Source: Actinomycetota bacterium
Lineage (GTDB): Bacteria; Actinomycetota; UBA4738; HRBIN12
Length of the DNA stretch: 46,511 nucleotides
NCBI GenBank assembly: GCA_035573995.1
Contig: DATLZM010000016.1
Span: 1-46,511, forward strand
Reading direction: 5' to 3'
In this document: one piece after another, positions 6,170-40,946 of the stretch
How the letters are laid out: every line of letters starts with the position of its first letter
Numbering within the stretch: position 1 is the first letter of the stretch
Notes under the pieces: generated by a model
The model's input: the letters and a program-made list of their open reading frames with translations, nothing else
The model's database searches: none
What the model was told of the DNA's origin: nothing
Made by a program: the position numbers and the translations under genes

Positions 6170-6211
6170 GCGGGCCCTCCCGGGGGTATCTCAGGGTCGG
6201 GAGGTGGCGCG

Positions 6212-12805: not shown

Positions 12806-12812
12806 CGCGGCG

Positions 12813-13798: not shown

Positions 13799-13819
13799 CG
13801 CCTGGGTATCTCCCCCGCG

Positions 13820-22964: not shown

Positions 22965-22969
22965 CGGCC

Positions 22970-25431: not shown

Positions 25432-25517
25432 AGCCTCCCCCAGGTCGATCCGGAGGGAAGGATTCCCCCGGGAAGGAGAGGGAAACGGCCTAGCGCGGGT
25501 CGCCGACCGCCGGAGGA

Positions 25518-26969: not shown

Positions 26970-26974
26970 CGTCC

Positions 26975-27205
26975 TCACGGAGCGTCGCTGCCCGGGGGAA
27001 CGTCGCACCGGGCGCCGAGGCGGTCCAGCACGTCCGTGAAGCCCGGGCTGTCCTCGGCCGGGAGGAGGGCGGGATGGACGTGGCCCGCTGTGCAGCGGCG
27101 GAAGACGACCTCCACCGGGCCGTCCGAACTCTCGAACACCCGGAAGGACTCCGGACTCGCGGGCCGTCCACACGATCCGCATCGCGTGTTCACGTCAGCT
27201 TCCAT
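26975..27205 (-). CDS. small Cys/His-containing hypothetical protein
   Basis: From ATG 27205 within ORF 26975..27259: MEADVNTRCGSCGRP...FRRCTAGHVHP. High GC3. Its stop lies 5 nt before the DksA-like start. Confidence 0.5.
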   Translation of the reverse strand: MEADVNTRCGSCGRPASPESFRVFESSDGPVEVVFRRCTAGHVHPALLPAEDSPGFTDVLDRLGARCDVPPGSDAP

Positions 27206-27293
27206 ACCCACTTCGGTCTGGGAGACACCCACTCGTCGCGGGCCGGCCGACCCGTGCATCGAGGCACCGCGCGACGGGTAAGCAGCCGGGGCG

Positions 27294-28336: not shown

Positions 28337-28362
28337 GTTTCGCCACGATCTCGCTCGGGTAG
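28337..28362 (+). promoter_or_regulatory. SigB/SigF-type promoter-like element (GTTT-N16-GGGTAG)
   Basis: GTTT at 28337-28340 and GGGTAG at 28357-28362. Lies just after the topoisomerase stop and 277 nt upstream of the LLM oxidoreductase start. Confidence 0.45.
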
Positions 28363-28638
28363 GGTGGGCGAGACGGGGCCCAGGCCAGGGATCGATCGAC
28401 CGCACCGCTCCAAGGAGCTTGGCGTGAGGGGCGGTCGGCGAGGGGGCCGGACCGGCCTGGACGGGGTCCGGCGACGGACGCTGAGCGCGGGCCGCCCCGA
28501 GGACCCGTGGACGAGATCCTCATCGGCTCCGGCGGGTGCGCGACCTGCTCCGCCTGCCGGGCAGCCCGACGAAAGGACACGACGGGCCGGCGAGCCAGCC
28601 GGTCGCAGGCGAGATCGGAGACAGGGAGGCGAGGGCCG

Positions 28639-29664
28639 ATGGAGCTTGGGTACACCCTCTCGAGCGAGGAGCACCCCGGGAGCCGTCTGGTGGAGCTGGC
28701 ACGCCGGGCCGAGCAAGCGGGGTTCACCTTCGCCAGCATCTCCGATCACTACCACCCCTGGATCGACCGCCAGGGCAACAGCCCGTTCGCGTGGTCGGTG
28801 TTGGGGGGAGTCGCCCAGGCGACGGAGCGGCTCGAGTTGATGACCGGTGTGACCTGCCCGACGATGCGGATCCACCCCGCGATCGTCGCGCAGGCCGCGG
28901 CGACCGTCGCCGAGATGATGCCGGGCCGGTTCACCCTCGGCCTGGGGACGGGCGAGGCGCTCAACGAGCACATCCTCGGGGATCCCTGGCCCTCGCCCGA
29001 GGTGCGCCTGGAGATGCTCGAGGAAGCGATCGAGGTGATCCGCTCGCTGTGGGAGGGCCAGGTCCTCACGTTCCACGGGGCGTACTACGACGTAGAGCGG
29101 GCCCGCCTCTACACGCTCCCGCCCGAGCCGCCGCTGATCGTCGTCGCCGCCTCGGGGCCGGCGTCCGCCACCCTCGCCGCCTCGGTGGCCGACGGGATCC
29201 TCACCACCACCCCTGACCCCCGGCTCCTCGAGCGCTACCGACTGGCCGGGGGGGCCGGCCGCATCTACGGGCAACTCCACGTCTGCTGGGCGGAGACGGT
29301 CGCCGAGGCTCGACGCACCGCGAAGGAGTGGTGGCCGACGGCCGGGCTCCCGGGCGCACTCGGGACGGAACTGCCGCTCCCCCGCCACTTCGAGCAGGCG
29401 GCGCAGCTCGTCACCGAGGAGGACCTCGCCCGGTCCGTCGTATGCGACCCGGACCCGGCCGCGCACCTCGAGGCGATCGGGCGCTTCGCGGGGGCCGGGT
29501 TCGAGCGGCTCTCCATCCATCAGGTGGGGCCGGACCAGGAGGGCTTCTTCCGCTTCTACGAGGCGGAGGTCCTGCCGCGGGCGGGCTCGGTCGCGGCCTC
29601 AGCGGACGGGCGGGCGCGTGGCGCTGGGAGGGTGGAAGATCCGCGGCTCACCGGCGAGTCTTGA
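28639..29664 (+). CDS. LLM-class F420-dependent oxidoreductase (TIGR03557-like, from memory)
   Basis: ATG 28639 with GGGAGG upstream. MELGYTLSSEEH, ISDHYHPW, GLGTGEALNEHILG, LWEG..L.F.G.YY. Confidence 0.85.
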   Translation: MELGYTLSSEEHPGSRLVELARRAEQAGFTFASISDHYHPWIDRQGNSPFAWSVLGGVAQATERLELMTGVTCPTMRIHPAIVAQAAATVAEMMPGRFTLGLGTGEALNEHILGDPWPSPEVRLEMLEEAIEVIRSLWEGQVLTFHGAYYDVERARLYTLPPEPPLIVVAASGPASATLAASVADGILTTTPDPRLLERYRLAGGAGRIYGQLHVCWAETVAEARRTAKEWWPTAGLPGALGTELPLPRHFEQAAQLVTEEDLARSVVCDPDPAAHLEAIGRFAGAGFERLSIHQVGPDQEGFFRFYEAEVLPRAGSVAASADGRARGAGRVEDPRLTGES

Positions 29665-30109
29665 TCCGCTCGGGCTCCTCTTCCCCGAGGCGCTTGAGGA
29701 TCTCGTCGACCTTCCGCTCGATCCGGTCGGAGCCGTCCTTCGACTCGGCGCTCCCCCGGTGGATCAGGACCGCGGACATCACGACGAACGAGAAGAGCTG
29801 CAGGAACTCCGACTGCCAGTTCTCCAGCGTGCTCTGCCCGAACTCCACGACGAAGTCCCGGACCGCAGCGGGTTCGCCGTGGGCCACCTGCTCCTGCTGG
29901 AAGCGGTCCCATTCGGCGACCGCCTGTGCGCTCCAGCTCAGGAGGAACAGGAGGCAGAACCCGATCGAGAGGCCGAAGTTCCGCCAGATCCTCCGGACGT
30001 TGTTCGTCCTCCGCTGCTGAAGGACGCTCTGGACGAGGCTCCCCACCAGGTACACGGTCACCCCCAGGAGCACGGCCACGGTCCAGACCACGATGAAGAT
30101 GTCGAACAT
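29648..30109 (-). CDS. small membrane protein (DUF6766-like, from memory)
   Basis: ATG 30109 with GGAGGAGG upstream. Three hydrophobic helices and the ENWQSEFLQ motif. The 3' end overlaps the convergent LLM gene by 17 nt. Confidence 0.7.
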   Translation of the reverse strand: MFDIFIVVWTVAVLLGVTVYLVGSLVQSVLQQRRTNNVRRIWRNFGLSIGFCLLFLLSWSAQAVAEWDRFQQEQVAHGEPAAVRDFVVEFGQSTLENWQSEFLQLFSFVVMSAVLIHRGSAESKDGSDRIERKVDEILKRLGEEEPERIKTRR

Positions 30110-30236
30110 GGGAACCTCCTCCCATCCGACCGCCACGGGATGCGGCGTCGTTCCTCGCTGCCTATGCCCGAACGGCGGGGGCGGCAAACGGCGAGGTTGC
30201 AGGGCGCGGATCGGGGGTACGGAAGGATCCGTGGGG

Positions 30237-30869
30237 ATGGGATCCGCCCCAGCCGACCTGATCCCCCCACGGCCCACGATCGCCGGGCTGCGGGAGGTCG
30301 CGGCGGCCTGCCGGGCCTGCGAGCTCTGGCGCCGGGGCACCAGGACCGTCTTCGGGGAAGGTCCGGCGCCCGCCGCCGTGATGCTCCTCGGCGAGCAGCC
30401 AGGGGACCGGGAGGACCGGGTGGGCCGACCGTTCGTGGGGCCCGCGGGAAAGCTGCTGGACCGCCTCCTCGACGCCTCGGGGATCGACCGCCGTACGGCG
30501 TACCTCACCAACGTGGTGAAGCACTTCAACTGGGAACCGAGGGGGAAGCGCAGGATCCACCGCAGGCCGACGAAGGTCCACGTGGCCGCCTGCCGCCCCT
30601 GGCTCGAGGCCGAGCTCGTCGTCGTCCGGCCGACGATCGTGGTGTGCCTGGGAGCGACCGCCGCGGCGGCGCTCCTCGGCCGTCCCGTCCGCCTGGCGGA
30701 GGAGCGGGGGAAGGTGTTCGCCGGGCCGATCGAACCGCCCGTGCTCCTGACCGCGCACCCATCCTCGATCCTGCGGATCGATGACGATCGGGCGCGCCGT
30801 GAGGCCTTCGATGCGCTCGTGCGCGACCTCCGGGTCGCGGCCCGGCGGATCGCGGCGGGTCACGTATAG
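30237..30869 (+). CDS. UdgX-type family-4 uracil-DNA glycosylase-like protein (covalent uracil-DNA binding type)
   Basis: CRACELW (Fe-S Cys), GEQPGDREDRVGRPFVGPAG (motif A), HFNWEPRGKRRIHRRP with KRRIH at 30546-30560, and HPSS. Aligns by eye along its whole length with M. smegmatis UdgX as I remember it. Confidence 0.85.
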   Translation: MGSAPADLIPPRPTIAGLREVAAACRACELWRRGTRTVFGEGPAPAAVMLLGEQPGDREDRVGRPFVGPAGKLLDRLLDASGIDRRTAYLTNVVKHFNWEPRGKRRIHRRPTKVHVAACRPWLEAELVVVRPTIVVCLGATAAAALLGRPVRLAEERGKVFAGPIEPPVLLTAHPSSILRIDDDRARREAFDALVRDLRVAARRIAAGHV

Positions 30870-30916
30870 CGGATCCCGTCCCAGGGTAGGGACCGGAGCG
30901 AGGAGGGAGGCCATCG

Positions 30917-31270
30917 ATGACCGAGCGATCGTCGAAGACGCTCCGCTACGCGAAGAGGGTCGACTCGCCCGACCAGCACGAGGATCGTCCGGGGCAGACC
31001 CTCGTCACCCGGAACCCGGACGTGATCCGCCGGTGGGCGGAGGAACGGGGAGCGACGCCCGCGACGGCCAGCAGGCGTGAGGGTCGACCCGCCACCCTCC
31101 GGTTCGACTTCCCCGGCTACGGGGGCGAGGGCCTCGAGCCGGTGCCGTGGGACGAGTGGCTCCAGGTGTTCGAGGAACGACGGCTCAACTTCATCTACCA
31201 GGAACACAAGGCGGACGGGTCGCAGAGCAACTTCTTCCGCCTGGAGAGCCCGGAGCGGGAGGAGGCGTAG
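30917..31270 (+). CDS. conserved hypothetical protein
   Basis: ORF 30917..31270. GAGGAGGGAGG upstream. LVT..PDVIRRWAEERGATPA...LRFDFPG...W.EW..VFEERRLNFIYQ pattern. High GC3. Confidence 0.65.
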   Translation: MTERSSKTLRYAKRVDSPDQHEDRPGQTLVTRNPDVIRRWAEERGATPATASRREGRPATLRFDFPGYGGEGLEPVPWDEWLQVFEERRLNFIYQEHKADGSQSNFFRLESPEREEA

Positions 31271-31289
31271 CGGTGGGGAGGTGAGGCGC

Positions 31290-31589
31290 GTGGCTGTCTG
31301 TTCGATGTGTGGGAACGATTACGATAAGGCGTTCGAGGTACGGATGCCGGGGGGCGCCGGGGGCACCTTCGACAGCTTCGAGTGCGCCATCTCGGCGCTG
31401 GCGCCCCGGTGCGAGCACTGCGGCTGCGCGGTGATCGGCCACGGGGTCGAGGCGGACGGCGCGATCTTCTGCTGCGCCTCGTGCGCCAGGGCGATGAACG
31501 TCGGAGGGGTCCGGGATCGGGCCGAGCAGGTCCCCGCCGAGGAGCAGCTCCGGGGGATCGGGCCGACGCGGCCTCCCGCGGAGAGCTGA
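31290..31589 (+). CDS. Cys-rich metal-binding hypothetical protein
   Basis: Within ORF 31077..31589. CSMCGNDYDKAFEV...FDSFECAISALAPRCEHCG...GHGVE...FCCASCA. The start is GTG 31290 or 31281, or ATG 31305. Confidence 0.6.
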   Translation: MAVCSMCGNDYDKAFEVRMPGGAGGTFDSFECAISALAPRCEHCGCAVIGHGVEADGAIFCCASCARAMNVGGVRDRAEQVPAEEQLRGIGPTRPPAES

Positions 31590-31611
31590 GGTCCGAGCTT
31601 CACCTCCGTGC

Positions 31612-32175
31612 TCACGGGCGGGGGCCCGGAGGCCCGGAGCGGCCCGGAGGCCCGGAACGGCGGAGCGCGATCGGCTCGAGTTCGGCCAGGACCTCGGTGG
31701 CGCGGTCAACGATGGCGACAGCATCCGCGTGTACGCCCACGTCCACCGGACCTTCCGCGCGCGGCTCGAAGGTGAGCTCCCAGGGTTCGCTCGCACGCAG
31801 GCCACCCACCCCCGACAGGAACCCACCCACCCCGCCTCCCAGGATCCCCCCGCCGAGGGCCGCCATCGCGGTCACGAGCGCTGGGAGCTCCCCCCGAACG
31901 GCGAGGACCGCCGCGACGCCGGCCACGCCCCCGAGGACGGCCCCGATCCCGCTCCCCATGACCAGGCGCCTCCCCAACCACCCCAGCGCCGCTCCCTCCC
32001 TGGCCCGCACCTCCCCCTGCCGCTCCTCGGCTCGGCGGATCCCCGGGCCGGAGAGCGAGATCGCGCGCGCTTCGACCCCCGCGCGCTCGAGCGCCCCGAT
32101 CGCCTCCCTGGCCCGTTCCGGTCCCGGGAAGCGAGCGACGACGTTGTAGGCGGCGGGGCGCCCCTCGGTGGCCAC
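31612..32175 (-). CDS. general-stress-type protein (YflT-like N-domain plus Gly-zipper membrane segment)
   Basis: Last 187 codons of ORF 31612..33069 from GTG 32175. YNVVARFPGPERAREAIGALERAGVEARAISL, then GSGIGAVLGGVAGVAAVLA...GGGILGGGVGGFLSGVGG. Confidence 0.6.
   Translation of the reverse strand: MATEGRPAAYNVVARFPGPERAREAIGALERAGVEARAISLSGPGIRRAEERQGEVRAREGAALGWLGRRLVMGSGIGAVLGGVAGVAAVLAVRGELPALVTAMAALGGGILGGGVGGFLSGVGGLRASEPWELTFEPRAEGPVDVGVHADAVAIVDRATEVLAELEPIALRRSGPPGRSGPPGPRP
31624..31659. repeat. 18-nt tandem duplication (2 copies, 1 mismatch) inside the 3' end of the CDS
   Basis: gcccggaggcccggagcg / gcccggaggcccggaacg. Encodes the repeated SGPPGR at the protein C-terminus. Confidence 0.7.
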
Positions 32176-32183
32176 GGGCGGGG

Positions 32184-32372
32184 TTAGACGTCGAAGATGC
32201 TCACGCCGCCGGGCCCGATCAGGAGCCCGAGCACGATCAGGGCGATGCCGGCCAGCACACCGCCGCGGACGATCGTGACGATGCCGGCGACCACGAGAGC
32301 AGCGGCGATCAGCCACAGGAGGGTGGCGACGCCGGACGCCTGCGCGAGCAGGGCGAAGGTGGCAGCGATCAT
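32184..32372 (-). CDS. GPGG-motif small membrane protein (62 aa)
   Basis: ATG 32372 with AGGAGG 5 nt upstream. Two TM helices ending in LLIGPGGVSIFDV. Confidence 0.65.
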   Translation of the reverse strand: MIAATFALLAQASGVATLLWLIAAALVVAGIVTIVRGGVLAGIALIVLGLLIGPGGVSIFDV

Positions 32373-32427
32373 GGGAACCTCCTGCGTCCAGGCCCGACCC
32401 ATCTGGTCGGGCGCTCCACCCGCTCCG

Positions 32428-32453
32428 ATACCCTCCCTCGGGGCGGGCCAAAC
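32428..32453 (-). promoter_or_regulatory. SigB/SigF-type promoter-like element (GTTT-N16-GGGTAT)
   Basis: On the minus strand, GTTT at 32453-32450 and GGGTAT at 32433-32428. About 55 nt upstream of the ATG at 32372. Confidence 0.5.
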
Positions 32454-32556
32454 GGCGTCCCCATAGGTCGTCGGCGGGTCGCTCGCTTGAAGGTAGGTGC
32501 CATTTGATATAGGAAGGCGCCGGGAGCGTCGTCCGAGGCCGCGGCAAGGGGGACCC

Positions 32557-32724
32557 GTGGAGAGGGCCGAAGGCAGCCGGGGGAAGGTGATCCTGCGGGC
32601 GACCAAGGGATCGAGCACCGTCACGCTCATGCTCACGCGCGAAGCGGCGGAGGCCCAGCGCGAGCGGTACGAGGCCGATGGCTGGGAGGTCGAGATCGAG
32701 GAACCGGACGAGGAGGGCGTCTAG
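32557..32724 (+). CDS. small hypothetical protein (55 aa)
   Basis: GTG 32557 within ORF 32497..32724, with AAGGGGGA upstream. VERAEGSRGKVILRATKGSSTVTLMLTREAAEAQRERYEADGWEVEIEEP. High GC3. Confidence 0.45.
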   Translation: MERAEGSRGKVILRATKGSSTVTLMLTREAAEAQRERYEADGWEVEIEEPDEEGV

Positions 32725-35700
32725 GCGGGAGCCACGCGGAGCGCGAGGAGCGCCGCGTCGTCGGCCAGCGGCTCCGGGGCGAACGCGAGGAGCTCCGTCC
32801 GGAGCGTCTCCACGATTTCCTGCGCCGAGGACCCGGCGAGCGAAGCCAGGAGGCGGCCGAAGGCCCGCTCGCCGAAGGCCTGCCCCTCTCGGCGCCGCTC
32901 GTCGACGCCGTCGGTGACGAGGAGCAGCCCCTGACCCGGAGGCAGCTCGACGGGGACGTCGTAGAGCGCGAGCTCCGAGGAGACCCCGAGGAGACCGCCC
33001 GGCCGACCAACAGGCTGGGCACCCCCCGAGGGCGCGAGGAGGAGCGGCAGGGGATGGCCCGCCGAGCAAACCGTGGCACGGAACCCGACCTCCTCGCGCT
33101 CGAGGAGGACACAGCAGACGGTGCAGAAGACCTCCTCCTCCGCCTGGTCGAGGAGGGCCCGATTCACGAGCCCGAGGATGCGGGAGGGGCTCCGTTCCCG
33201 GAGCGCGCCGACCCGGACCGCCTGCCGGACCAGGTTCCCGGTCGCGGCGGCCTGGGCGCCGCGACCGGAGACGTCGCCCATCATCGCCATCCAGCGCTCG
33301 TCCCCAGCTTCGAACACGTCGAACAGATCCCCGCCGACCGAGACGCCCTCGCCGAACGGGAGGTACGCGGCGGCCACCTCGAGCCCGGGGATGTCGGGCA
33401 GGCGCGGCGGGAGGAGGCTCTCCTGCAGGAGGGTCGCGGTGCGCCGCTCCCGCTCGTACAGCGCCGCCCGATCCAGGGCCTGCGCGAGCTGGCGCCCGAC
33501 GGATTCGATGAATCGGAGATCGTCGTCGGCGATCCGGACGTTGCGGCGGAACGCGACGTGCAGGACCCCCGCCACGGTCCCGCGGTCGGTGAGCGGGACG
33601 CTGACGCTCGCCCGGTCGCCGGCCGCGGCCCTGACCTCAGCGAGCCGCGGCCACCGCCGGGCGAGTTCCGCCGGCGAGCGCACCACGACGGTCCCTTGGG
33701 AGCGGGCCGCCTCCGCGAGCGGACCCTCTAGGTCGAGGGGGACCTCGCGGTGGCGCTCGAGACGGTCCTCGGGGTAGCCGACGGAGGCCGCGAGCTCGAA
33801 GGCGGAGCGCTCGCGGTCGACCACGTAGACCGCCCCGGCGTCCGCGCCGAGGGCCGGCAGGACCTGCTGGAGGACCGCCACCCCGACCTCCTCCGAGGTC
33901 CTCGCGCCGGACAGCGCAGCCGAGACCCCGTACAGCTGCGCGTTGCGGACGGCGGCCCGCTCCGCCTCCCTGCGGGCCCGCCGCTGGTCGCGGTAGAGCT
34001 GCGCGTTGTCGATCGCCGCGGCTGCCCGCCGCGCGACCTCCATGAAGAACGGCAGGTCGGCCTCGCCGAAAGCTCGAGCCGGGTCGGTGCACGCGAACAC
34101 GATCGCCCCCAGGACCGAGCCCCTCGCGCGGAGAGGGACCACCACCTTCGAAACGACGCCGAGGGTCCGCAGGAAGCGCTCGTGCTCGGCGTCGCCGTCC
34201 TGCCCGGACCCGATGGTCCGGACGAGGAGCGGCTCGCCGGTGCGCATCGCGCGGACCACCCGGGGGGACAGCGTGTCCCCGAACCGCTCCACGTACCGGC
34301 GGACCACCGACTTCATCTCCGGATCGCGGTGGGCGACCTTCGTCCGGAGCGGGCCATCGCCGTCCCGGAGGTAGACGACGCACCAGTCCGCGAGGCCATG
34401 GACGGCGAGTTGCGCGATCCGCTCGAGGGTCCGCTCGTGGTTCAGGCCGGACCCGAGCACCTCCCCGGCCGCAGCGAGGAAGCGCTGCCGCTCCTCCTCC
34501 CGTCGGCGCCCGGTCACGTCTCGGAAGAACCAGGCCCGACCGAACAGCGTGCCGTCGTCGCCGAGGATCGGTGCCGTGTGGCGCTCGAGCACCCGCCCGT
34601 CACGCAGCGGGATCTCGTCCCAGCCCTCCTCGTTGGGATGGTCGTAGAGATAGCGGACCCGCGCATAGAACCCGTCGGGGTCCGCGAGCTGGTCCCGGAC
34701 CCAGGCGAGGGCCGCCTCGTCGTCCCGCGAGTCGAGCACCTCCTCGGGGAGTCCCCACAGCTCCGCGAACCGGCGGTTGAAGGAGATCATCTGCCCCTGG
34801 GGCGATACCACGAGGATCCCCTCCTGGCTCGCCTCGGCCTGCAGCTCGAGCAGCGTCTTCTGGAACCGCAGGTCGCGCTCGAGCTCCTTGTGGCCCGTGA
34901 GGTCGGTGATCACGTTCACGGCGAAGGCGGGGCGCCCGTCCTCGTCCGGCACCGGCCGCGCCTTCACCAGGCGCCACGAGCGCCGGCCGGTCCGCCGGTC
35001 CACGACCTGGAGGGTGGCCTCCGGCTCCGGTTCCCCCCGCAGTGCCCTCCGACCGGGCAAGCGGTCGGGGTCCAACGGGCGGCCATCCTCGTCCAGCACC
35101 TCGAATCGCGCGAGGAGCTCCGGGGTGGGGGTCGCGAGCAGCGCCCCTGGGGATGGGAGCCCGGCCATCCTCGCCGCGACCACGTTCGCGTACACCAGCC
35201 GCCCGTCACGGTCCTGCACGGTGATCCCGTCGGCCAACCCCTGGGTCATCACGTCCAGCAAACGCCGGGACCGCTCGAGGTCGGCCTCGGCGCGCCGCCG
35301 GTCCACCGCGAACGCGACCTGCGAGGCGACCGCCCGGGCGGCGAGCACCTCGTCCGGGGTGAACGCGTGGGGCTCGTCGAAGTACAGCATGAACTTCCCC
35401 AGGAGACGCCCGGCCGACAGGAGCGGGATGAACGCCAGCGCTCGGATCCCCTCCGCCTCGATCGCCGGGAGCAACGGCGCCAGGGCGGGTTGTGCGCCCG
35501 CGTCCTCCACGAGGACGGGCGCGGGATCCCGCTCGCCCGGCTGCCACGGCGAGTGGCCCTCGACGGCGGCCCGGTACGCCGCCGACAGGCCTCGCCACGC
35601 GCGGAACCGCATCACCCCACCGCGATCCGAGAGGAGGACCGCCGCGCGGTCCGGCCCCACCGTCCGATCGAGCGCCTCCAGCGCGTGGCCCAGCACCTCG

Positions 35701-35798
35701 TCGAGGTCCTCCGCGCGGGACACGGCGTCGCTGAGGCGCCACAGGCTGTCGAGGTCCTCGAGGAGGCGGAGCCTGGGGTCTCGGAGCCCTTCCCTCAT
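32721..35798 (-). CDS. multi-sensor PP2C (SpoIIE/RsbU-type) protein phosphatase: GAF-PAS-PAS-GAF-GAF-PP2C
   Basis: ORF 32721..35930, with ATG 35798 preferred as the start. PAS-like blocks (ITVQDRDGRLVYAN; GILVVSPQGQMISFN). GAF-like blocks. C-terminal PP2C (GGDLFDV, MMGDVSGRG, LLVTDGVDE). Confidence 0.85.
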   Translation of the reverse strand: MREGLRDPRLRLLEDLDSLWRLSDAVSRAEDLDEVLGHALEALDRTVGPDRAAVLLSDRGGVMRFRAWRGLSAAYRAAVEGHSPWQPGERDPAPVLVEDAGAQPALAPLLPAIEAEGIRALAFIPLLSAGRLLGKFMLYFDEPHAFTPDEVLAARAVASQVAFAVDRRRAEADLERSRRLLDVMTQGLADGITVQDRDGRLVYANVVAARMAGLPSPGALLATPTPELLARFEVLDEDGRPLDPDRLPGRRALRGEPEPEATLQVVDRRTGRRSWRLVKARPVPDEDGRPAFAVNVITDLTGHKELERDLRFQKTLLELQAEASQEGILVVSPQGQMISFNRRFAELWGLPEEVLDSRDDEAALAWVRDQLADPDGFYARVRYLYDHPNEEGWDEIPLRDGRVLERHTAPILGDDGTLFGRAWFFRDVTGRRREEERQRFLAAAGEVLGSGLNHERTLERIAQLAVHGLADWCVVYLRDGDGPLRTKVAHRDPEMKSVVRRYVERFGDTLSPRVVRAMRTGEPLLVRTIGSGQDGDAEHERFLRTLGVVSKVVVPLRARGSVLGAIVFACTDPARAFGEADLPFFMEVARRAAAAIDNAQLYRDQRRARREAERAAVRNAQLYGVSAALSGARTSEEVGVAVLQQVLPALGADAGAVYVVDRERSAFELAASVGYPEDRLERHREVPLDLEGPLAEAARSQGTVVVRSPAELARRWPRLAEVRAAAGDRASVSVPLTDRGTVAGVLHVAFRRNVRIADDDLRFIESVGRQLAQALDRAALYERERRTATLLQESLLPPRLPDIPGLEVAAAYLPFGEGVSVGGDLFDVFEAGDERWMAMMGDVSGRGAQAAATGNLVRQAVRVGALRERSPSRILGLVNRALLDQAEEEVFCTVCCVLLEREEVGFRATVCSAGHPLPLLLAPSGGAQPVGRPGGLLGVSSELALYDVPVELPPGQGLLLVTDGVDERRREGQAFGERAFGRLLASLAGSSAQEIVETLRTELLAFAPEPLADDAALLALRVAPA

Positions 35799-36085
35799 GC
35801 CGACGCCTTCCGGCAGGGGATGACGTTCACCGGGGAAGGAGATCGACGACCGGCCCCCCGCCGAGGCGTCGTCGCGCCCCTCGGGCGGCCTGGCCACGGG
35901 GGCTGGGGAGCGAGCACGCCCTGACTTCATACGTGCGCGCGGACACCCGTGTCAACCGTGCGTCCTGCTGGTCGCGCCGTGCGGGCTCCCGCCGGCCCGC
36001 GCCTCAGCAGGTCGATCCTCCTCGTGCGGACCCAACGATCGGCATCTGGGTTGGCCGGCGTGCCGTCGTGGGGATAGATACGGAC

Positions 36086-36346
36086 GTGGACGTTGCTGGC
36101 ATCGCGTGGGTGCTCCCGCTCGCCGCGCCCCACGCCGCGGATGCTCCACCGGGAGGCGTCGACCTGGTGCTGGCGTTCCTCGCCGGGCTCACGGTGCTCC
36201 CGCTCGCGTACTGGGTCTGGCGCTCCCGGACGCATCGGCGCTGGTACCGCTGCCAGGTGGCGAGCGTCCAGGAGGACGCCGAGCGAGCCCTTCGGGACCC
36301 GGTCCTGATCCACCAGGCACGACGACAGCTCAGGCGTCGGTCTTGA
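36086..36346 (+). CDS. possible small membrane protein
   Basis: GTG 36086 within ORF 35933..36346. One hydrophobic helix (VDLVLAFLAGLTVLPLAYWVW) and a basic tail. GC3 is high but there is no clear SD. Confidence 0.3.
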   Translation: MDVAGIAWVLPLAAPHAADAPPGGVDLVLAFLAGLTVLPLAYWVWRSRTHRRWYRCQVASVQEDAERALRDPVLIHQARRQLRRRS

Positions 36347-36403
36347 GCCGCGAGGAACGGGCGGGCAGCGGTCCGCCCGCCCGTTCCCCCGTTCCTCCAC
36401 GGC

Positions 36404-36730
36404 CTAGATCAAGCGACGCTTGCCCGCCGCCGCGCGGACCAACAAGACGAGCGCCACGGCGACGAGGATCGAGGCGATCCAGTCGACCCCGGGCGTCTCC
36501 TGGAGCATGGCACCCGCGAGCCACCCACCTGCGACCGCGCCGATCACGCCGATCACGAGGGTCCCGAGCAGGCCGACGGGGTCGCGGCCGGGTACGAGGA
36601 GCCGCGCCAGGGCCCCGACCACCAGGCCCACCAGGACGTAGCCGAGGATCGATGCGATGTCGACCTCTGCACGCGCGCGGGCCGCGGCGATCGACGCCGC
36701 GACGGCGATCTCGTGGGATCCGTTCAGCAT
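36404..36730 (-). CDS. GlsB/YeaQ/YmgE-family stress-response membrane protein
   Basis: VGLVVGALARLLVPGRDPVGLLGTLVIGVIGAVAGGWL. ATG 36730 with AGGAGGG upstream. Confidence 0.8.
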   Translation of the reverse strand: MLNGSHEIAVAASIAAARARAEVDIASILGYVLVGLVVGALARLLVPGRDPVGLLGTLVIGVIGAVAGGWLAGAMLQETPGVDWIASILVAVALVLLVRAAAGKRRLI

Positions 36731-36877
36731 GGTTCCCTCCTTCCTGGATCACGTCCCCTGCGGCTCGGGGCAGCCGCCTCGACGGGCTCGACCACGCGGA
36801 TCTCGCTCCGACCCTCCGCGATCCACCGGCTCGGCGAGCCGGCGACCCTCGGCGCCACCTCCGAGAGGATGGGGCGA

Positions 36878-36905
36878 GGGGGATCGGGGGCGGTCCCGAT
36901 CCCCC
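36878..36905 (-). terminator. strong GC hairpin (possible terminator or attenuator)
   Basis: GGGGGATCGGG (36878-36888) pairs with CCCGATCCCCC (36895-36905) around a 6-nt loop. Lies 17 nt downstream of the stop at 36922 on the minus strand. No U-tract. Confidence 0.3.
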
Positions 36906-36921
36906 ATCGTCCCGGGGGTCG

Positions 36922-37410
36922 CTACTCGTGGGCGTGGTCGGGAGCGATGTCGGCTGGAAGGGGGGATCCGCCGACGAAGCCGCCCACGAGCGCGACGACC
37001 GAACCGATCAACAGCAGCCAGGCCCCGAGGCCCAGCGCCTCCGGCAGCGGAGCCTCGGCCCGGTACCGCTGGATCACGAACAGCGCGAAGCCGACGACGC
37101 CGAGGGCACCGGCCAGCCTGGTGAGGCCTCCACCGCGGAGCGCGAGGCCGAGGACCGCCAGCAGGCCGATGGCGATCGCGACCGCGCCGACGCTGGCGAC
37201 GAACATCTCGGCCCGTTCCGGCTGGGCCGCCCAGAAGGCCCGGACGTCGAGCTGGGTCCCCACGACCCCCTCGGTCCAGGGCAGGAACGCGCTGACGATC
37301 GTGAGCGCCGCCCCGGTGAGGCCGAGGGCCATCCTCCCCGCGAGGCCTGCCACCGCGCCGCCTGTCCGGTGGCGGTGCGCGACCCCTCCGTGCGCGTGGT
37401 GCGTGGACAT
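36922..37410 (-). CDS. membrane protein with His-rich termini
   Basis: ORF 36922..37410. MSTHHAHGGVAHRHR N-terminus, four hydrophobic helices, and an APDHAHE C-terminus. Confidence 0.65.
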   Translation of the reverse strand: MSTHHAHGGVAHRHRTGGAVAGLAGRMALGLTGAALTIVSAFLPWTEGVVGTQLDVRAFWAAQPERAEMFVASVGAVAIAIGLLAVLGLALRGGGLTRLAGALGVVGFALFVIQRYRAEAPLPEALGLGAWLLLIGSVVALVGGFVGGSPLPADIAPDHAHE

Positions 37411-37429
37411 AGCGCCGCTCCTTCCCCGG

Positions 37430-37597
37430 CTACACCAGGGCCGGGATCAGATACCGGGCGATGAAGTACAGGACCGCCACCAGCATCAGGAAGATGAAGC
37501 CGTACTTCACGAGGGCGAAGCTGGTCAGCCCATTCGCCTCGGGCTCCCCCACGTCGTGCGTGTGGCGGTCGTGCTCGAGGTGCGGGTCGTGCGCCAT
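37430..37597 (-). CDS. small membrane protein with His-rich N-terminus (55 aa)
   Basis: ATG 37597 with GGGAGG 7 nt upstream. MAHDPHLEHDRHTHDVGEPE followed by one TM helix (FALVKYGFIFLMLVAVLYFIA). Confidence 0.55.
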   Translation of the reverse strand: MAHDPHLEHDRHTHDVGEPEANGLTSFALVKYGFIFLMLVAVLYFIARYLIPALV

Positions 37598-37656
37598 GCG
37601 GATACCTCCCCGCGACCGGTCCCGGGTCGCATCGATTTCCCGTTCCAGCGAGACGC

Positions 37657-37683
37657 GTACCCCTCCGGGTGGGTGGAGCAAAC
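37657..37683 (-). promoter_or_regulatory. SigB/SigF-type promoter-like element (GTTT-N17-GGGTAC)
   Basis: On the minus strand, GTTT at 37683-37680 and GGGTAC at 37662-37657. About 60 nt upstream of the ATG at 37597. Confidence 0.4.
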
Positions 37684-37713
37684 CTGGTGTGGAGGGATCG
37701 GGCCCGCCGACGC

Positions 37714-38124
37714 TCAGCGGCCGGGCTCGAGCGCGACCGAGAACCGAGCCATCGCTCCCAGGTCGTCCTCGAGGAGCTCGGCGTCCTCGAACAGCAGGCG
37801 TACGAGCTCGATACCCCCGGGCCACGGCTCGCCCCACACGCCGTTGGGTGGACCGGAGCGCCCGCCGGCGGTGCGCACCCCGAAACGCAGGCGCCCGCCT
37901 TCCCTCGCGATCTCGAGGCGGATCGAGCCGACCGGCTCCGAGCCCGTGACCGCCGCCCAGGCCTCGGAGATGGCGAGCTTCACGTCGTCCACCACGGCCT
38001 CCTGGCACCCGGCCTGCCGCGCGATCGCCGAAGCGAAGACGCGCGCCGTGGCCAGGAACGGGGGCTCGGCGGGGAGCTCCAGCACGAAGACCCGCTCCCG
38101 AGGTGGGGCCTCGGGATCGCTCAT
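37714..38124 (-). CDS. RsbW/SpoIIAB-like anti-sigma-factor-fold protein, apparently kinase-dead
   Basis: ATG 38124 overlaps the STAS stop (ATGA). The fold-level pattern (ATARVFASAIARQAG..DDVKLAISEAWAAV..IRLEI) resembles RsbW, but the N-box Asn is absent. Confidence 0.6.
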   Translation of the reverse strand: MSDPEAPPRERVFVLELPAEPPFLATARVFASAIARQAGCQEAVVDDVKLAISEAWAAVTGSEPVGSIRLEIAREGGRLRFGVRTAGGRSGPPNGVWGEPWPGGIELVRLLFEDAELLEDDLGAMARFSVALEPGR

Positions 38125-38540
38125 CCTGGGCCCGCGGACGCCGTCGCGCGTTCGACGGAGGCGTGGATCGGGAAGAGCTGATCCAGCCCGGTGATCGCGA
38201 GCACGCGTCGGACGGCGCCTTCTCCGCACACCAGAGCCAGCTCTCCGCCGCGCTCCCGCAGCCGCCGGAGGCCGCCGATCAACACGCCGAGGCCGCTCGA
38301 GTCCATGAACGAGACGTCGACCAGGTCGACGACGACCCTGGTGGCGCCGCCCTCGATGGCGCCGAGGAGCCGCTCACGCAGCCGGGGTGCCGTGTACAGG
38401 TCGACCTCGCCGGCCGCCCGTAGGATCGTCCAGCCCGCCTCGTCCCGGGTATCGATCGAGAGATCGATGACGATTCCTCCTCCTCGCTCCGCACCGCCCG
38501 CCGACGGGCGGGACCTCGCGGCTAGTATAGGCGCACCCAT
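38121..38540 (-). CDS. STAS-domain anti-sigma-factor antagonist (RsbV/SpoIIAA-like)
   Basis: LRAAGEVDLYTAPRLRERL, VVVDLVDVSFMDSSGLGVLIG (phosphorylatable Ser region), RVLAITGLDQLFPI. The only canonical start is ATG 38540. The first ~22 codons use rare ATA/CTA codons and contain a GGAGGAGGA box, so the real start may be near 38474-38466. Confidence 0.8.
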   Translation of the reverse strand: MGAPILAARSRPSAGGAERGGGIVIDLSIDTRDEAGWTILRAAGEVDLYTAPRLRERLLGAIEGGATRVVVDLVDVSFMDSSGLGVLIGGLRRLRERGGELALVCGEGAVRRVLAITGLDQLFPIHASVERATASAGPG

Positions 38541-38931
38541 GCCTCCGCCCTCCAGCGAGATCCTGGCGTCGGTCCCCGCGAGCCCGGAGTACGTGCACGC
38601 GTTGCGATCGGTCGCCGCGAGCGTAGCGGCCCGGCTCGACCTCTCCTACGACGAGCTGGAGGATCTGCGGCTCCTGGTCGACGAGGCCTGCGGGCGCCTG
38701 CTCGCGGACGGCACCGCGGAAACCCTGACGCTCAGGATGGCCCTCGCGGGGGAGGACGTCGCCATCGAGGTTGGCACCGAGGGACCCCCGGGCGCCTGGC
38801 CCCCGACCGGGCCGGCCTACGAGCTCTCGGCGCGGATCCTCTCCACGCTCGCCCGCGAGGTCCGCTTCGAGGTGGTCGAGGGCCGGCGCGTGGTCCGGAT
38901 GTTGGTCCGGCCCCGGCGGGTGGGGCGATGA
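38539..38931 (+). CDS. RsbW-like anti-sigma-factor-fold protein, apparently kinase-dead, translationally coupled to the sigma factor
   Basis: Last 130 codons of ORF 38191..38931. VHALRSVAASVAARLDLSYDELEDLRLLVDEACGRLL...LTLRM. No N-box Asn. The stop overlaps the sigma-factor ATG (ATGA). Confidence 0.6.
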   Translation: MPPPSSEILASVPASPEYVHALRSVAASVAARLDLSYDELEDLRLLVDEACGRLLADGTAETLTLRMALAGEDVAIEVGTEGPPGAWPPTGPAYELSARILSTLAREVRFEVVEGRRVVRMLVRPRRVGR

Positions 38932-39722
38932 GCGAGCGCGGCTCGACTCCCGAGGACGTCCCCGCGTCCCTCGGCTCTCGTGAGGACGAAGCCCTGGACC
39001 CCGAGGAGCGAGCCCTCTTCGAGCGCGCAGCGGACGACCGGGCGGCTCGCGAGGCCCTCGTGATCAGGCACCGCCCGCTCGCGGAGTACCTCGCCCGTCG
39101 CTTCCAAGGTCGCGGGGAGCCCGTGGACGACCTCGTCCAGGTGGCGATGATCGGCCTCCTCAAGGCGATCGACCGGTTCGACACGGACCGCGGGGTGAAG
39201 TTCTCGACGTACGCCACCGCGACGATCGTGGGCGAGCTCAAGCGGCACTTCCGCGACCGTGGCTGGGGGTTGCGCGTCCCCCGTCGGCTGCAGGAGACGG
39301 GGCTCCTCGTGAACCAGGTCGTATCGGAGCTCTCGCAGACCCTCGGGCGGTCGCCGACGATCGCCGAGATCGCGCGACGGGCCGGGCTCGAGGAGGACGA
39401 GGTGATCGAGGGGATCGAGGTGGCATCGGCCTACGCCCCTGCGTCGCTGGACGCCCCGTCCCCCGAGGGCGAGAGCCCGCATCGAGAACCCAGCGTCGAG
39501 GAGGAGGACTTCGAGCGGCTGGAGGGATGGGCCGCGGTGGCACCGGCGATCCGCGAGCTCCCCGCCCGGGAACGTCGGATCCTCTACCTCCGGTTCTTCC
39601 GAGACATGACCCAGACCGAGATCGCACGCGAGATCGGGATCTCGCAGATGCACGTCTCGCGCCTGCTCGCGAAGACCTTGGCCTGGCTCCGGGAGCAGGT
39701 GGACCCCGGCGCGTTCGGGTGA
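38928..39722 (+). CDS. group-3 RNA polymerase sigma factor (SigB/SigF/SigG family)
   Basis: Region 2 (DDLVQVAMIGLLKAIDRFD, FSTYATATIVGELKRHFRD), region 3 (PTIAEIARRAGLEEDEV), region 4 (RERRILYLRFFRDMTQTEIAREIGISQMHVSRLL). Confidence 0.9.
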   Translation: MSERGSTPEDVPASLGSREDEALDPEERALFERAADDRAAREALVIRHRPLAEYLARRFQGRGEPVDDLVQVAMIGLLKAIDRFDTDRGVKFSTYATATIVGELKRHFRDRGWGLRVPRRLQETGLLVNQVVSELSQTLGRSPTIAEIARRAGLEEDEVIEGIEVASAYAPASLDAPSPEGESPHREPSVEEEDFERLEGWAAVAPAIRELPARERRILYLRFFRDMTQTEIAREIGISQMHVSRLLAKTLAWLREQVDPGAFG

Positions 39723-39733
39723 GGAGGATAGAG

Positions 39734-40210
39734 GTGGGTCGCGAGCGCGAGAACCGGGGGGACCGGAAGGAGCGGCTGGACCGGGAGCTGATCGAGCTCC
39801 TGAACGAACTCCGGGTGGCCCTCCCCGGGGTCCAGGTCCTGTTCGCGTTCCTCCTCACGGTGCCGTTCACCCAGCGGTTCGCCGACCTCTCTGCCTTGCA
39901 ACGCGACGTCTACTTCGCGGCCTTCCTCGCTACCGGCGTGGCGTCGGTCCTGCTCATGGCCCCCACGGCGTACCACCGGATCCGGTGGCGCCAGTACGAC
40001 AAGGAACGCATGCTGAGGACCGCGAACCGGCTGGCGATCGGGGGCATGCTGGGGCTCGCCTCCGCGATCGCCACGACGGTCTTCCTCATCACCGACCTCC
40101 TCTTCTCCGCGCCGGCCGGTGCGGCGACGACCGCGGCGATCGCGGGCCTGCTGGCGTGGCTGTGGTTCGGCCTGCCTCTCTCCCGGCGGATCCAGGACGG
40201 CGGCCGCTGA
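39734..40210 (+). CDS. membrane protein (DUF6328-like, from memory)
   Basis: GTG 39734 with GGAGGA upstream. LIELLNELRVALPGVQVLFAFLLTVPF..RF..L....R..Y pattern plus two further TM helices. Confidence 0.7.
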   Translation: MGRERENRGDRKERLDRELIELLNELRVALPGVQVLFAFLLTVPFTQRFADLSALQRDVYFAAFLATGVASVLLMAPTAYHRIRWRQYDKERMLRTANRLAIGGMLGLASAIATTVFLITDLLFSAPAGAATTAAIAGLLAWLWFGLPLSRRIQDGGR

Positions 40211-40235
40211 GGCACCGATGGCTGGAGGTCGCGAG

Positions 40236-40757
40236 CTAGCCGGAAGAGCCCTCGCGCCGGAGCGAACGGCGACGCGGGAGGTCGATCTCGAGCCAGACCC
40301 GGGTGGTCGGGCCCGGCTCGACCCCCCAGCGGTCGGCGAGCCGGTCCACGAGGAAGAGCCCCCAGCCTGAGACTCCCACGACCGCTCGATCCCGACCCGG
40401 GATCTCGAACCCGCGGCCCGGGTCCGCCACCTCGAGCCGGACCAGGTCCCCGGTCACCTCGATGCGGACGAGCACGCTTGCCTCCGGGCCGGCGCGCGCA
40501 TGCCGCACACTGTTGCCGACGAGCTCGGACACGAGGAGCCGCAGGTCCTCCAGGACCGATGCGGGGAGGTCGTCGGCCAGGGCCTCGAGGGCCCGCCGCG
40601 CCGAGGTCACGGCGCGGGGACCCAAGCGGTATCGCCGCTCGAGGATCACCGACCGGCTCGCTCCCCGAGGGGCCGCCACCCCCGCTGGCCGCGGGTCGGA
40701 TCGGAACACGCAGGTTCGCCGGCTGCGGCGCTCCAGGCGCTGAAAGACTTCCCCCAC
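40236..40757 (-). CDS. RsbW-type serine-protein kinase / anti-sigma factor (intact HATPase_c_2)
   Basis: LLVSELVGNSVRHA (N-box with Asn), ADPGRGF (G1), GWGLFLVDRLADRWG (G2). The start is uncertain (GTG 40757 or an internal GTG). Confidence 0.75.
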   Translation of the reverse strand: MGEVFQRLERRSRRTCVFRSDPRPAGVAAPRGASRSVILERRYRLGPRAVTSARRALEALADDLPASVLEDLRLLVSELVGNSVRHARAGPEASVLVRIEVTGDLVRLEVADPGRGFEIPGRDRAVVGVSGWGLFLVDRLADRWGVEPGPTTRVWLEIDLPRRRSLRREGSSG

Positions 40758-40920
40758 GACCCCCGGATCTCGACCCCGATCACGTCTCCCACGGGCGGCG
40801 GGCCACGGTGACTACGCGGTCCGCGTCCTCACCTCGCCACAAGCCTACCCACGATGGCCCGAGGAGCAAGCGCGACATCGGCGGGATCCGCGCCGCCGAG
40901 GCGCCTTCCCGGCGTCCCGG

Positions 40921-40946
40921 GTTTCGGGGGCCTGGCGAACGGGTAG
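40921..40946 (+). promoter_or_regulatory. SigB/SigF-type promoter-like element (GTTT-N16-GGGTAG)
   Basis: GTTT at 40921-40924 and GGGTAG at 40941-40946. About 70 nt upstream of the GlsB-like start at 41016. Confidence 0.45.

Follow-up and report, generated by a model that had tools for sequence, protein, structure and literature searches.

The SigF promoter of Mycobacterium smegmatis has been experimentally defined as GTTT-N14-19-GGGTA, with GGGAA as a common variant of the -10 box, and the SigF regulon includes ChaB, a transglycosylase-associated protein, RsbW, type I topoisomerase and Dps, MSMEG_3022 (transglycosylase-associated protein) and MSMEG_1802 (ChaB) being SigF-dependent (PMC4694148). 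GGGTA is found at the -10 position of mapped transcription starts (PMC6448022). In Streptomyces coelicolor, the SigB homologues cross-recognise promoters (PMC8346170). The window analysed here is a single whole contig of 46.5 kb from an uncultured actinobacterium. The GTTT…GGGTA motif repeated in it is real and is a clear but ordinary case of this known system. As had been predicted, it is the same as the consensus published for SigF and for SigB homologues (PMC4694148, PMC6448022, PMC8346170). It very probably represents the -35/-10 pair for a polymerase with a SigB/SigF-family sigma factor, most likely the one encoded at 38928-39722, and the window would be a stress island.

Motif sites in the window and in related loci

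The sites and the genes around them are given in Table 1. The four full matches to GTTT-N16/17-GGGTA(G/T/C) of the original prediction, and exactly these four, were recovered at their coordinates, against 0.05 expected (100 dinucleotide-preserving shuffles, none of which reached four). With spacers of 15-17 nt the window contains five exact matches, while a first-order Markov null gives 0.02. The computed expectation is thus 0.02-0.05, so the previous estimate of 0.2-0.3 chance matches was conservative; its conclusion that chance is unlikely stands, and the figure itself was too high. All six one-mismatch sites listed before are present, and one exact site (N15) and three one-mismatch sites are added (marked new in Table 1). 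The distinct one-mismatch sites number about nine, eight of them intergenic, against a null of 3.1 ± 1.8, in which overlapping registers are counted too; about three are expected to be attributable to chance. On both strands of the whole window there are 21 GTTT and 42 GGGTA. Intergenic DNA makes up 13.3% of the window by our gene map and is no higher in A+T content than coding DNA, and 7 of the 10 intergenic GTTT fall within an exact or one-mismatch site. The claim that the sites are intergenic and correctly oriented holds for all five exact ones, each pointing at the next gene. The start codon lies 277, 56, 60 and 70 nt from the -10 hexamer at the four sites, in agreement with the 55-280 nt given before, and 10 nt from it at the fifth.

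Table 1. Candidate promoter sites and genes of the window
Feature	Positions	Strand	Downstream gene or description
Exact, GTTT-N15-GGGTAC, GTTTGGCCGTTCGAGCGAGGGGTAC (new)	11801..11825	+	GmhB-like HAD phosphatase (GTG 11835), then ChaB (12398-12805)
Exact, GTTT-N16-GGGTAG	28337..28362	+	277 nt 5' of F420-type LLM oxidoreductase
Exact, GTTT-N16-GGGTAT	32428..32453	-	56 nt 5' of GPGG protein
Exact, GTTT-N17-GGGTAC	37657..37683	-	60 nt 5' of His-rich membrane protein
Exact, GTTT-N16-GGGTAG	40921..40946	+	70 nt 5' of GlsB2
One-mismatch, GCTT-N16-GGGTAT	6164..6189	+	23 nt 5' of three-gene operon
One-mismatch, GTTG-N16-GGGTAT	13784..13809	+	Second GT9 heptosyltransferase (ATG 13820)
One-mismatch, GTGT-N16-GGGTAA (new)	15988..16013	+	Dodecin (16023/16059-16319)
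One-mismatch, GTTT-N15-GGGAAT	25462..25486	-	31 nt 5' of GT1 gene (24445-25431)
One-mismatch, GTGT-N15-GGGTAT (new)	27204..27228	-	DksA/TraR zinc-finger gene (26595-26978), DUF5709 (26182-26598)
One-mismatch, GTTT-N16-GGGCAT (new)	30164..30189	-	28 nt 5' of DUF6766 (29648-30136)
One-mismatch, GTTG-N15-GGGTAC	30196..30220	+	UdgX (GTG 30231)
One-mismatch, GTAT-N16-GGGTAG	30864..30889	+	28 nt 5' of hypothetical gene 30917-31270
One-mismatch, GCTT-N17-GGGTAG	40845..40871	-	88 nt 5' of intact RsbW-type kinase
Three-gene operon	6212-7867	+	Nucleotidyltransferase 6212-6910, BON-domain protein 6888-7154, metallophosphoesterase 7151-7867
GPGG small membrane protein, 62 aa	32184-32372	-	Then gene 31612-32175
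PAS-GAF-PP2C (SpoIIE-type) phosphatase	32721..35930	-	Presumed partner-switch input
His-rich membrane protein, 55 aa	37430-37597	-	Then 162-aa membrane protein 36922-37410
Second degenerate HATPase_c_2 (RsbW-like) protein	37714..38085	-	Adjoins STAS gene
STAS anti-sigma antagonist	38121..38540	-	FMDSSGLG motif with phosphorylatable serine
Anti-sigma-like protein, sigma-adjacent	38539..38931	+	Weak HATPase_c_2 match
SigB/SigF/SigG-family sigma factor	38928..39722	+	Candidate regulator
DUF6328 membrane protein	39719..40210	+	76% identical to L081 orthologue
RsbW-type serine kinase, intact	40236..40757	-	N-box SELVGNSVRHA, G1 DPGRGF, G2 GWGLFL
GlsB2 (GTG start)	41016-41282	+	Then coiled-coil protein 41298-41693

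The 80 GTDB loci with sigma homologues together contain 37 exact sites where 1.6 would be expected, an enrichment of about 20-fold. Over 83 loci, the density falls from 1.85 sites per 10 kb at up to 500 nt from the sigma gene to about 0.25 at greater distances. In the closest relative, L081, whose sigma factor is 78% identical to that of the window, all three exact sites lie upstream of genes whose window orthologues bear the motif, namely GlsB (74% identity), GPGG (83%) and a unit of CsbD followed by orthologues of two His-rich membrane proteins (57% and 60%). The boxes are kept between L081 and the window, while spacers and flanks have diverged. Homologues of ChaB, LLM, UdgX and GT9 in other relatives bear the motif or a one-mismatch version of it, and no upstream site, with one mismatch allowed, was found in the relatives' loci for homologues of the window's transporter, aminotransferase and end-of-contig genes. 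At a G+C content of 73%, runs of GGG are frequent and some of the one-mismatch matches would be expected anyway, as an origin of the matches by chance or as a composition by-product of G+C-rich intergenic DNA would have it. However, this origin is effectively refuted by the exact-match statistics, by the enrichment over 80 independent loci and by the conservation of the boxes before the L081 orthologues, and the intergenic DNA is not A+T-richer either. The promoter reading is predicted from sequence, and the motif could instead be a transcription-factor binding site or part of a dispersed repeat; we consider this very improbable, since the motif is asymmetric and always directed toward the downstream gene, the sites have the two boxes alone in common with unrelated spacers, the spacing is fixed at 15-17 nt like that of -35/-10 pairs, and SigF promoters mapped by experiment have the identical sequence (PMC6448022, PMC4694148). 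For such promoters the transcription start should be sought 8-11 nt after the hexamer, where the S. coelicolor starts were mapped (Table 2 in PMC8346170), and not 6-9 nt past the GGGTA box as originally expected.

Candidate target genes

The distance to the LLM gene is counted from its corrected start (ATG 28639). This site scores lowest of the five exact ones on the cross-species matrix (11.9 bits), and LLM orthologues in L001 (57% identity) and L026 (53%) follow one-mismatch sites at 48 and 12 nt, respectively. The GPGG orthologue in L081 has an exact site with the 16-nt spacing kept and a different spacer sequence, and a homologue in L028 has a one-mismatch site; the label 'YflT-like' formerly given to the neighbouring gene finds no support in Pfam or NCBIfam. 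All four homologues of the 55-aa His-rich protein in the relatives are preceded by an exact or one-mismatch site. Upstream of GlsB homologues there are exact sites in L081, L085 and L088, while L005, L006 and L016 have one-mismatch versions. The fifth exact site immediately follows a GT9 gene (stop 11799), and the GTG of the GmhB-like gene is the 10th nt after its hexamer. GAGGAG is present between hexamer and start codon, and a read-through transcript would fit as well as a leaderless one. An L001 orthologue of ChaB (61% identity) is preceded by an exact site at a distance of 24 nt. The earlier suggestion that the island may extend to the heptose genes gains support from this site before GmhB-like HAD and ChaB, and further from the site before the second GT9 gene, whose ATG is the 11th nt past the hexamer and whose homologues in L078 and L080 follow a GTGT-N16-GGGTA at 15 nt.

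Among the one-mismatch sites, that of UdgX has an exact counterpart in L032, ahead of a CBS-UdgX operon directly 3' of a SigF-family sigma gene. The UdgX and DUF6766 sites are arranged back to back, as are those of the intact kinase and GlsB2. RsbW-like homologues in L023, L030 and L069 have exact sites upstream, and GTTT-N16-GGGCAC precedes genes labelled HATPase_c_2/HATPase_c (RsbW-like) in the called gene maps of L085 and L086. In L001, the nucleotidyltransferase/BON/metallophosphoesterase operon also adjoins the sigma gene, and a DksA-type homologue has GTTT-N16-GGGAAA 147 nt upstream. The GT1 gene is followed by an HldE-like gene (22970-24448) and a GT2 gene (21894-22964). The dodecin site falls within the final codons of the GT9 gene before it and is a weaker candidate. 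The hypothetical gene 30917-31270 has no homologue among the fetched relative loci. We assume that the five exact and several of the nine one-mismatch sites would serve as promoters of small membrane and stress genes (two GlsB, GPGG, the His-rich proteins, ChaB, the F420-type LLM oxidoreductase, UdgX and the BON-domain operon), and that some heptose-glycosylation genes are probably driven from such sites as well.

The sigma factor and its partner-switching module

The assignment of the sigma factor to the SigB/F family is borne out by NCBIfam TIGR02980 (266.6 bits; cutoff 234.35). Pfam regions r2, r3 and r4 were all found, the region 4.2 helix GISQMHVSRL matches its counterpart in PDB chain 8x6g_H, whose annotation reads only 'RNA polymerase sigma factor', the best structural relative is 1l0o_C ('sigma factor'), and the best matches are 61% identical in GTDB and 78% in metagenomic sequences. 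The adjacent anti-sigma-like protein, as read directly from the translation, has neither the N-box Asn nor the DxGxG motifs, and its arrangement with the sigma gene is kept in L081 and L085-L088. The second degenerate RsbW-like protein is 46% identical to its L081 counterpart, homologues of the PAS-GAF-PP2C phosphatase adjoin the sigma gene in 16 loci, and the DUF6328 gene is probably co-transcribed downstream of the sigma gene. Judged by their motifs and domains, the phosphatase, the STAS antagonist and the three RsbW-like proteins form a complete predicted partner-switching module around the sigma factor. Regulon activity would then be set post-translationally: the sigma-adjacent pseudo-kinase would hold the sigma factor, the unphosphorylated STAS protein would free it, the intact RsbW-type kinase would phosphorylate and inactivate the STAS protein, and the phosphatase would reactivate it upon a signal. 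The transcription starts, the inducing signals and the roles of the individual RsbW-like proteins are all predictions.

The sites could also be genuine SigB/F-type promoters whose main reader is a paralogous sigma factor from another part of the genome, the local one being only one of several that recognise them. Nearly all of 24 S. coelicolor promoters tested are recognised by at least two of the nine SigB homologues, and no sequence feature distinguishes the promoters of these homologues (PMC8346170). Moreover, paralogues could be counted on this one contig only, and upstream of the window's own anti-sigma/sigma operon no SigF-type site was found, even with one mismatch allowed, while many relatives have one (within 350 nt upstream of 25 of 73 sigma homologues). 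Nevertheless, motif-bearing genes stay beside the sigma orthologue despite rearrangements in L081, L001, L085, L088 and L032, and the sites are densest at the sigma gene, which makes a paralogue rather unlikely as the main reader. Given the cross-recognition in S. coelicolor and a window that already takes in the entire contig, we only infer that the sites are used by the sigma factor 38928-39722 itself.

Comparison with described SigB/SigF systems

The SigF system of M. smegmatis and M. tuberculosis, with its RsbW-RsfA/RsfB switch, has the same consensus, GTTT-N(14-19)-GGGTA, and a sigma factor of the same family, and its tolerated variants GTGT, GTTG, GCTT, GGGAA and GGGCA also occur in the window. 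The regulon families in common with M. smegmatis SigF are ChaB, transglycosylase-associated protein/GlsB, an RsbW homologue and an anti-sigma antagonist, and further Dps and type I topoisomerase (PMC4694148). Also alike are, in M. smegmatis, the dense clustering of SigF-dependent genes beside sigF (MSMEG_1766-1804) and the three RsbW homologues, there with divided roles (PMC7693655), and the many mycobacterial sites 8-11 nt from the start codon. The differences are that the window comes from an uncultured Actinomycetota lineage, that its island contains the large PAS-GAF-PP2C phosphatase, that its sigma operon has no visible SigF-type promoter, and that UdgX, the F420-type LLM oxidoreductase and heptosyltransferase genes are among its candidate targets. 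B. subtilis SigB (RsbU/P-RsbV-RsbW) shares the -35 GTTT and -10 GGGTAT boxes and the switch logic of STAS antagonist, serine kinase/anti-sigma and PP2C input phosphatase, and it targets small general-stress proteins such as CsbD, whose gene lies 3' of the motif in L081. However, its hexamers GTTTAA and GGGTAT are separated by 12-14 nt (N14 in Pctc, PMC8346170), that is, a GTTT-GGGTA gap of 14-16 nt against 15-17 nt in the window; its genes form a single autoregulated rsbV-rsbW-sigB-rsbX operon, whereas the STAS and anti-sigma/sigma genes of the window are divergent and the sigma-adjacent anti-sigma has no kinase motifs. The SigB homologues of S. coelicolor use GTTT/GNNT-N-GGGTA(C/T/G) promoters in high-G+C DNA, as in the window (PMC8346170), and Streptomyces differs in its many cross-recognising paralogues, nine in S. 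coelicolor, which are tied to differentiation.

Candidate promoters in the window and the genes behind them

A scan of both strands of the window located the four GTTT-N16/17-GGGTA(G/T/C) matches of the original prediction at exactly the coordinates it had given, and its six sites with one changed box base are likewise all present. The four matches compare with a mean of 0.05 in 100 dinucleotide-preserving shuffles, none of which reaches four, and 0.02 exact sites are expected under a first-order Markov model that allows spacers of 15–17 nt. The claim that chance is an unlikely source thus holds at 0.02–0.05 expected sites, while the accompanying estimate of 0.2–0.3 was too high, that is, conservative. 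When a 15-nt spacer is also allowed, a fifth exact site (GTTTGGCCGTTCGAGCGAGGGGTAC), overlooked before, appears in front of the gene for a GmhB-like phosphatase, and the five spacers are then 15, 16, 16, 16 and 17 nt, as befits a pair of -35 and -10 boxes. All five sites are intergenic and each is oriented toward the next gene, in a window of 73% G+C of which 13.3% is intergenic according to our own gene map and in which intergenic DNA has no higher A+T content than coding DNA. Both strands together hold 21 GTTT and 42 GGGTA, and seven of the ten intergenic GTTT lie inside an exact or one-mismatch site. An artefact of chance or composition is ruled out by the shuffles and the intergenic composition, and a dispersed repeat is ruled out because the sites share the two boxes only; a binding site for a transcription factor was rejected as well.

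Distinct one-mismatch sites number about nine in the window against 3.1 ± 1.8 expected, and eight are intergenic; about three of them may be chance matches. A softened position weight matrix had a noisy null (10 hits at or above 12 bits where 3.25 were expected) and served for ranking only. One sequence with two mismatches, GTTA-N16-GGGAAT at 21873-21898 on the minus strand, yet reaches 14.5 bits on the cross-species matrix; the SRPBCC/polyketide-cyclase-like gene 69 nt downstream of it (21322-21804) may be a further member of the regulon. Moreover, candidate promoters stand back to back within one short intergenic region twice in the window (40845-40946 and 30164-30220) and once in a relative's locus, L001 (17114-17200), with their -35 boxes 6–50 nt apart.

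Promoter-like sites and genes located in the window
Feature	Coordinates	Strand	Remark
Exact site	11801-11825	+	N15; before GmhB-like HAD phosphatase gene, then ChaB gene
Exact site	28337-28362	+	N16/17 pattern; before F420-type LLM oxidoreductase gene (start ATG 28639, set by comparison with L001)
Exact site	32428-32453	-	N16/17 pattern; before genes for 62-aa GPGG membrane protein, then 187-aa protein
Exact site	37657-37683	-	N16/17 pattern; before genes for His-rich membrane proteins of 55 and 162 aa
Exact site	40921-40946	+	N16/17 pattern; before GlsB2 gene, then coiled-coil protein gene
Additional one-mismatch site	15988-16013	+	GTGT-N16-GGGTAA
Additional one-mismatch site	27204-27228	-	GTGT-N15-GGGTAT
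Additional one-mismatch site	30164-30189	-	GTTT-N16-GGGCAT
GT4 fused to SIS (GmhA-like) domain	7938-9866
GT9 heptosyltransferases (three)	10714-11799, 13820-14935, 14955-16013
GmhB-like HAD phosphatase	11835-12395
PfkB-cytidylyltransferase fusion, HldE-like	22970-24448
Dps-like ferritin	25535-26029
TopIB	27294-28310
PAS-GAF-PP2C phosphatase	32721-35930	-	1069 aa
Second degenerate HATPase_c_2 protein	37714-38085	-
STAS antagonist	38121-38540	-	FMDSSGLG motif; divergent
HATPase_c_2 protein without kinase motifs	38539-38931	+	upstream of the sigma gene, overlapping it
Sigma factor	38928-39722	+	TIGR02980 SigB/F/G, 266.6 bits (cutoff 234.35)
DUF6328 membrane protein	39719-40210	+
Intact RsbW-type kinase	40236-40757	-

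Genes were called from third-position G+C and cross-checked with Pfam and NCBIfam. The distances from the -10 hexamer to the start codon are 277, 56, 60 and 70 nt for the exact sites at 28337, 32428, 37657 and 40921, respectively, and 10 nt for the one at 11801; the three leaders of 56–70 nt end in a clear Shine-Dalgarno sequence. This geometry is compatible with transcription starts, predicted from the sequence, 8–11 nt past the hexamer, the distance mapped in S. coelicolor (PMC8346170, Table 2); in M. smegmatis, too, the start codon of many genes follows the SigF site at 8–11 nt (PMC4694148, Table 1). Since GTG 11835 and ATG 13820 are the 10th and 11th nucleotides past the hexamers of the sites at 11801 and 13784, respectively, both genes would, by analogy with S. 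coelicolor, give leaderless mRNAs. For dodecin and UdgX such a geometry is ambiguous, as alternative start codons are present. No sigma-70-type promoter or intrinsic terminator was found between 27 and 42 kb in a simple scan. The label 'YflT-like' proposed for 31612-32175 finds no profile support: the 187-aa protein has no Pfam or NCBIfam match even at E up to 5. The 117-aa protein of 30917-31270 (plus strand) has no match in these databases either; it precedes a Cys-rich 94-aa protein (31305-31589, plus strand) with a weak, below-cutoff hit to prokaryotic metallothionein (E 0.007) and a homologue in the relative's locus L028. In addition, 17141-19264 (minus strand) encodes an unusual 707-aa fusion of a peptidase M50, two CBS, a PDZ and a Lon C-terminal protease domain.

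The sigma factor and its probable partner-switching module

The sigma factor has all of the Pfam regions r2, r3 and r4 and passes the family model TIGR02980. Its scores do not reach the cutoffs for the specific models (255 versus 372 bits for SigF, NF005514; 162 versus 315 for SigB, TIGR02941) and it can thus be assigned to the family only, not to a named orthologue. Its region 4.2 (GISQMHVSRL) resembles that of PDB chain 8x6g_H (GLSQMHVSRL), labelled 'RNA polymerase sigma factor', which we take to be a SigB, and in region 2.4 it is closely similar to both 8x6g_H and 1l0o_C. The divergently encoded STAS protein scores 89.5 bits for STAS and 102 bits for TIGR00377, and its translation has the serine of the DSSG motif, as expected of an antagonist. 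Among the three HATPase_c_2 proteins one has intact N, G1 and G2 boxes, and with the PAS-GAF-SpoIIE phosphatase the domain content of a partner switch is present. The divergent core of STAS and anti-sigma/sigma genes is kept in the relatives' loci L081 and L085–L088.

Most likely, the sites are promoters of a SigB/SigF-family holoenzyme that would be governed by this partner switch. By analogy with M. smegmatis, which has three RsbW homologues (PMC7693655), we infer that the pseudo-kinase adjacent to the sigma factor would be the anti-sigma factor, that the intact kinase would phosphorylate the STAS serine and that the PP2C protein would provide the signal input. Two points weaken the promoter reading: no SigF-type site, even with one mismatch allowed, precedes the window's own anti-sigma/sigma operon, and the site before the LLM gene is far from its start codon. 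In other loci, mostly of Acidimicrobiales/Acidimicrobiia (L004, L005, L016, L020, L025, L037, L044–L046, L050, L053, L062 and L067), a GTGTA-N14/15-GGGTAG variant lies 12–86 nt before the SigF-family sigma gene, and this may be a lineage-specific form of autoregulatory promoter.

Sites at related loci

The window is an entire contig, and relatives' loci were scanned in place of its own genome; an exact look-up of the sigma factor in public assemblies gave no match. In 80 GTDB loci around sigma homologues of 40–61% identity there are 37 exact sites versus 1.6 expected, at a density of 1.85 per 10 kb up to 500 nt from the sigma gene and of about 0.25 per 10 kb beyond. Against these figures, the 1.1 exact sites per 10 kb of the whole window and the 3.2 between 28337 and 40946 mark a real cluster. 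Of 73 sigma homologues, 25 have an exact or one-mismatch site within 350 nt upstream.

In the closest relative, L081 (sigma factor 78% identical), all three exact sites precede orthologues of motif-bearing genes of the window: one before GlsB (74% identical), one before the GPGG protein (83%) and one before a CsbD gene followed by both His-rich membrane protein orthologues (57% and 60%). Between the two GPGG promoters GTTT, GGGTA and the 16-nt spacing are kept, while spacer and flanks have diverged. MAFFT misaligned L081 in the GlsB promoter regions owing to unequal leader lengths, and motif coordinates were taken instead. Exact sites also lie 24 nt upstream of the ChaB orthologue of L001 (61% identical), upstream of the GlsB-like genes of L085 and L088, and before a CBS-UdgX operon directly after the sigma gene of L032. 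With the LLM orthologues, which have a one-mismatch site 48 nt (L001) or 12 nt (L026) upstream, conserved boxes in diverged surroundings are found before orthologues in L081, L001, L026, L032, L085 and L088. Furthermore, the gene for the 55-aa protein is preceded by GTTT-N15/16-GGGAA in L085, L086 and L088, and GT9 homologues of L078 and L080 have GTGT-N16-GGGTA 15 nt upstream. In the scanned loci, no such site was found upstream of counterparts of the transporter, aminotransferase or end-of-contig genes of the window.

The unusually long LLM leader of the window (28363-28638) contains no convincing ORF. A riboswitch or structured RNA in it was rejected, given that Rfam has no hits in the window, that the folding z-score is -0.44 and that the leader length is not conserved in L001 and L026.

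A paralogous sigma factor encoded elsewhere in the genome could also read the sites, as SigB homologues of S. coelicolor cross-recognise promoters (PMC8346170). However, the target genes stay linked to this sigma orthologue across the relatives, which favours the local sigma factor without proving it.

Two features concern L081 itself. The public gene call at 7969-8661 fuses an RsbW-like HATPase and a CsbD domain, between which an exact motif (8257-8281, minus strand), a Shine-Dalgarno sequence and an ATG are found; judged from these signals, the call probably covers two genes, with csbD under a SigF-type promoter. At 15908-20771, GlsB is directly followed by a membrane metallophosphoesterase (74% identical) and an ABC transporter, the window counterparts of which are at 627-6169, at the opposite contig end from GlsB2. 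Around the island, the two lineages have been rearranged relative to each other.

Proposed extent of the regulon and comparison with known systems

The original reading of the motif as a SigB/F promoter is supported by the statistics, by position and orientation, by conservation before orthologues, by the family of the sigma factor and by the domains of the switch. From the window, a general-stress regulon of an uncultured lineage of actinobacteria and the promoters belonging to it can be annotated cleanly and with comparative support. No new mechanism is revealed, the type of system being already known; the SigF-type consensus holds well outside mycobacteria and Streptomyces, and so do core targets, namely GlsB, small His-rich and GPGG membrane proteins, ChaB and the F420-type LLM oxidoreductase.

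UdgX and heptose-glycosylation genes are nominated as stress-controlled. The latter form a heptose-type cluster (7938-16013 and 21894-25431), completed by GT1 and GT2 genes, in a contig of Gram-positive-type Actinomycetota. That the SigF-type sigma factor directly controls this ADP-heptose/heptosyltransferase cluster (sites 11801, 13784 and 25462), UdgX and the F420-type LLM oxidoreductase is a tentative and rather doubtful proposal. If true, envelope glycan remodelling and DNA protection would be tied to partner switching, a link which, to our knowledge, is undescribed for mycobacterial or Bacillus regulons.

The -35 GTTT and -10 GGGTA consensus is known from two studies (PMC4694148 and PMC8346170), and hypoxia-induced transcription starts that have been mapped also have GGGTA at -10 (PMC6448022). 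The motif of the window is the SigF consensus of M. smegmatis, GTTT-N(14-19)-GGGTA, including its variants GTGT, GTTG, GCTT, GGGAA and GGGCA (PMC4694148). The M. smegmatis regulon has a dense cluster adjoining sigF and comprises ChaB (MSMEG_1802), a transglycosylase-associated protein (MSMEG_3022), RsbW (MSMEG_1787), a type I topoisomerase (MSMEG_1784), Dps (MSMEG_6467) and an anti-sigma antagonist (PMC4694148). The window shares with it the families of ChaB, two GlsB proteins, RsbW-like proteins, TopIB and a Dps-like ferritin.
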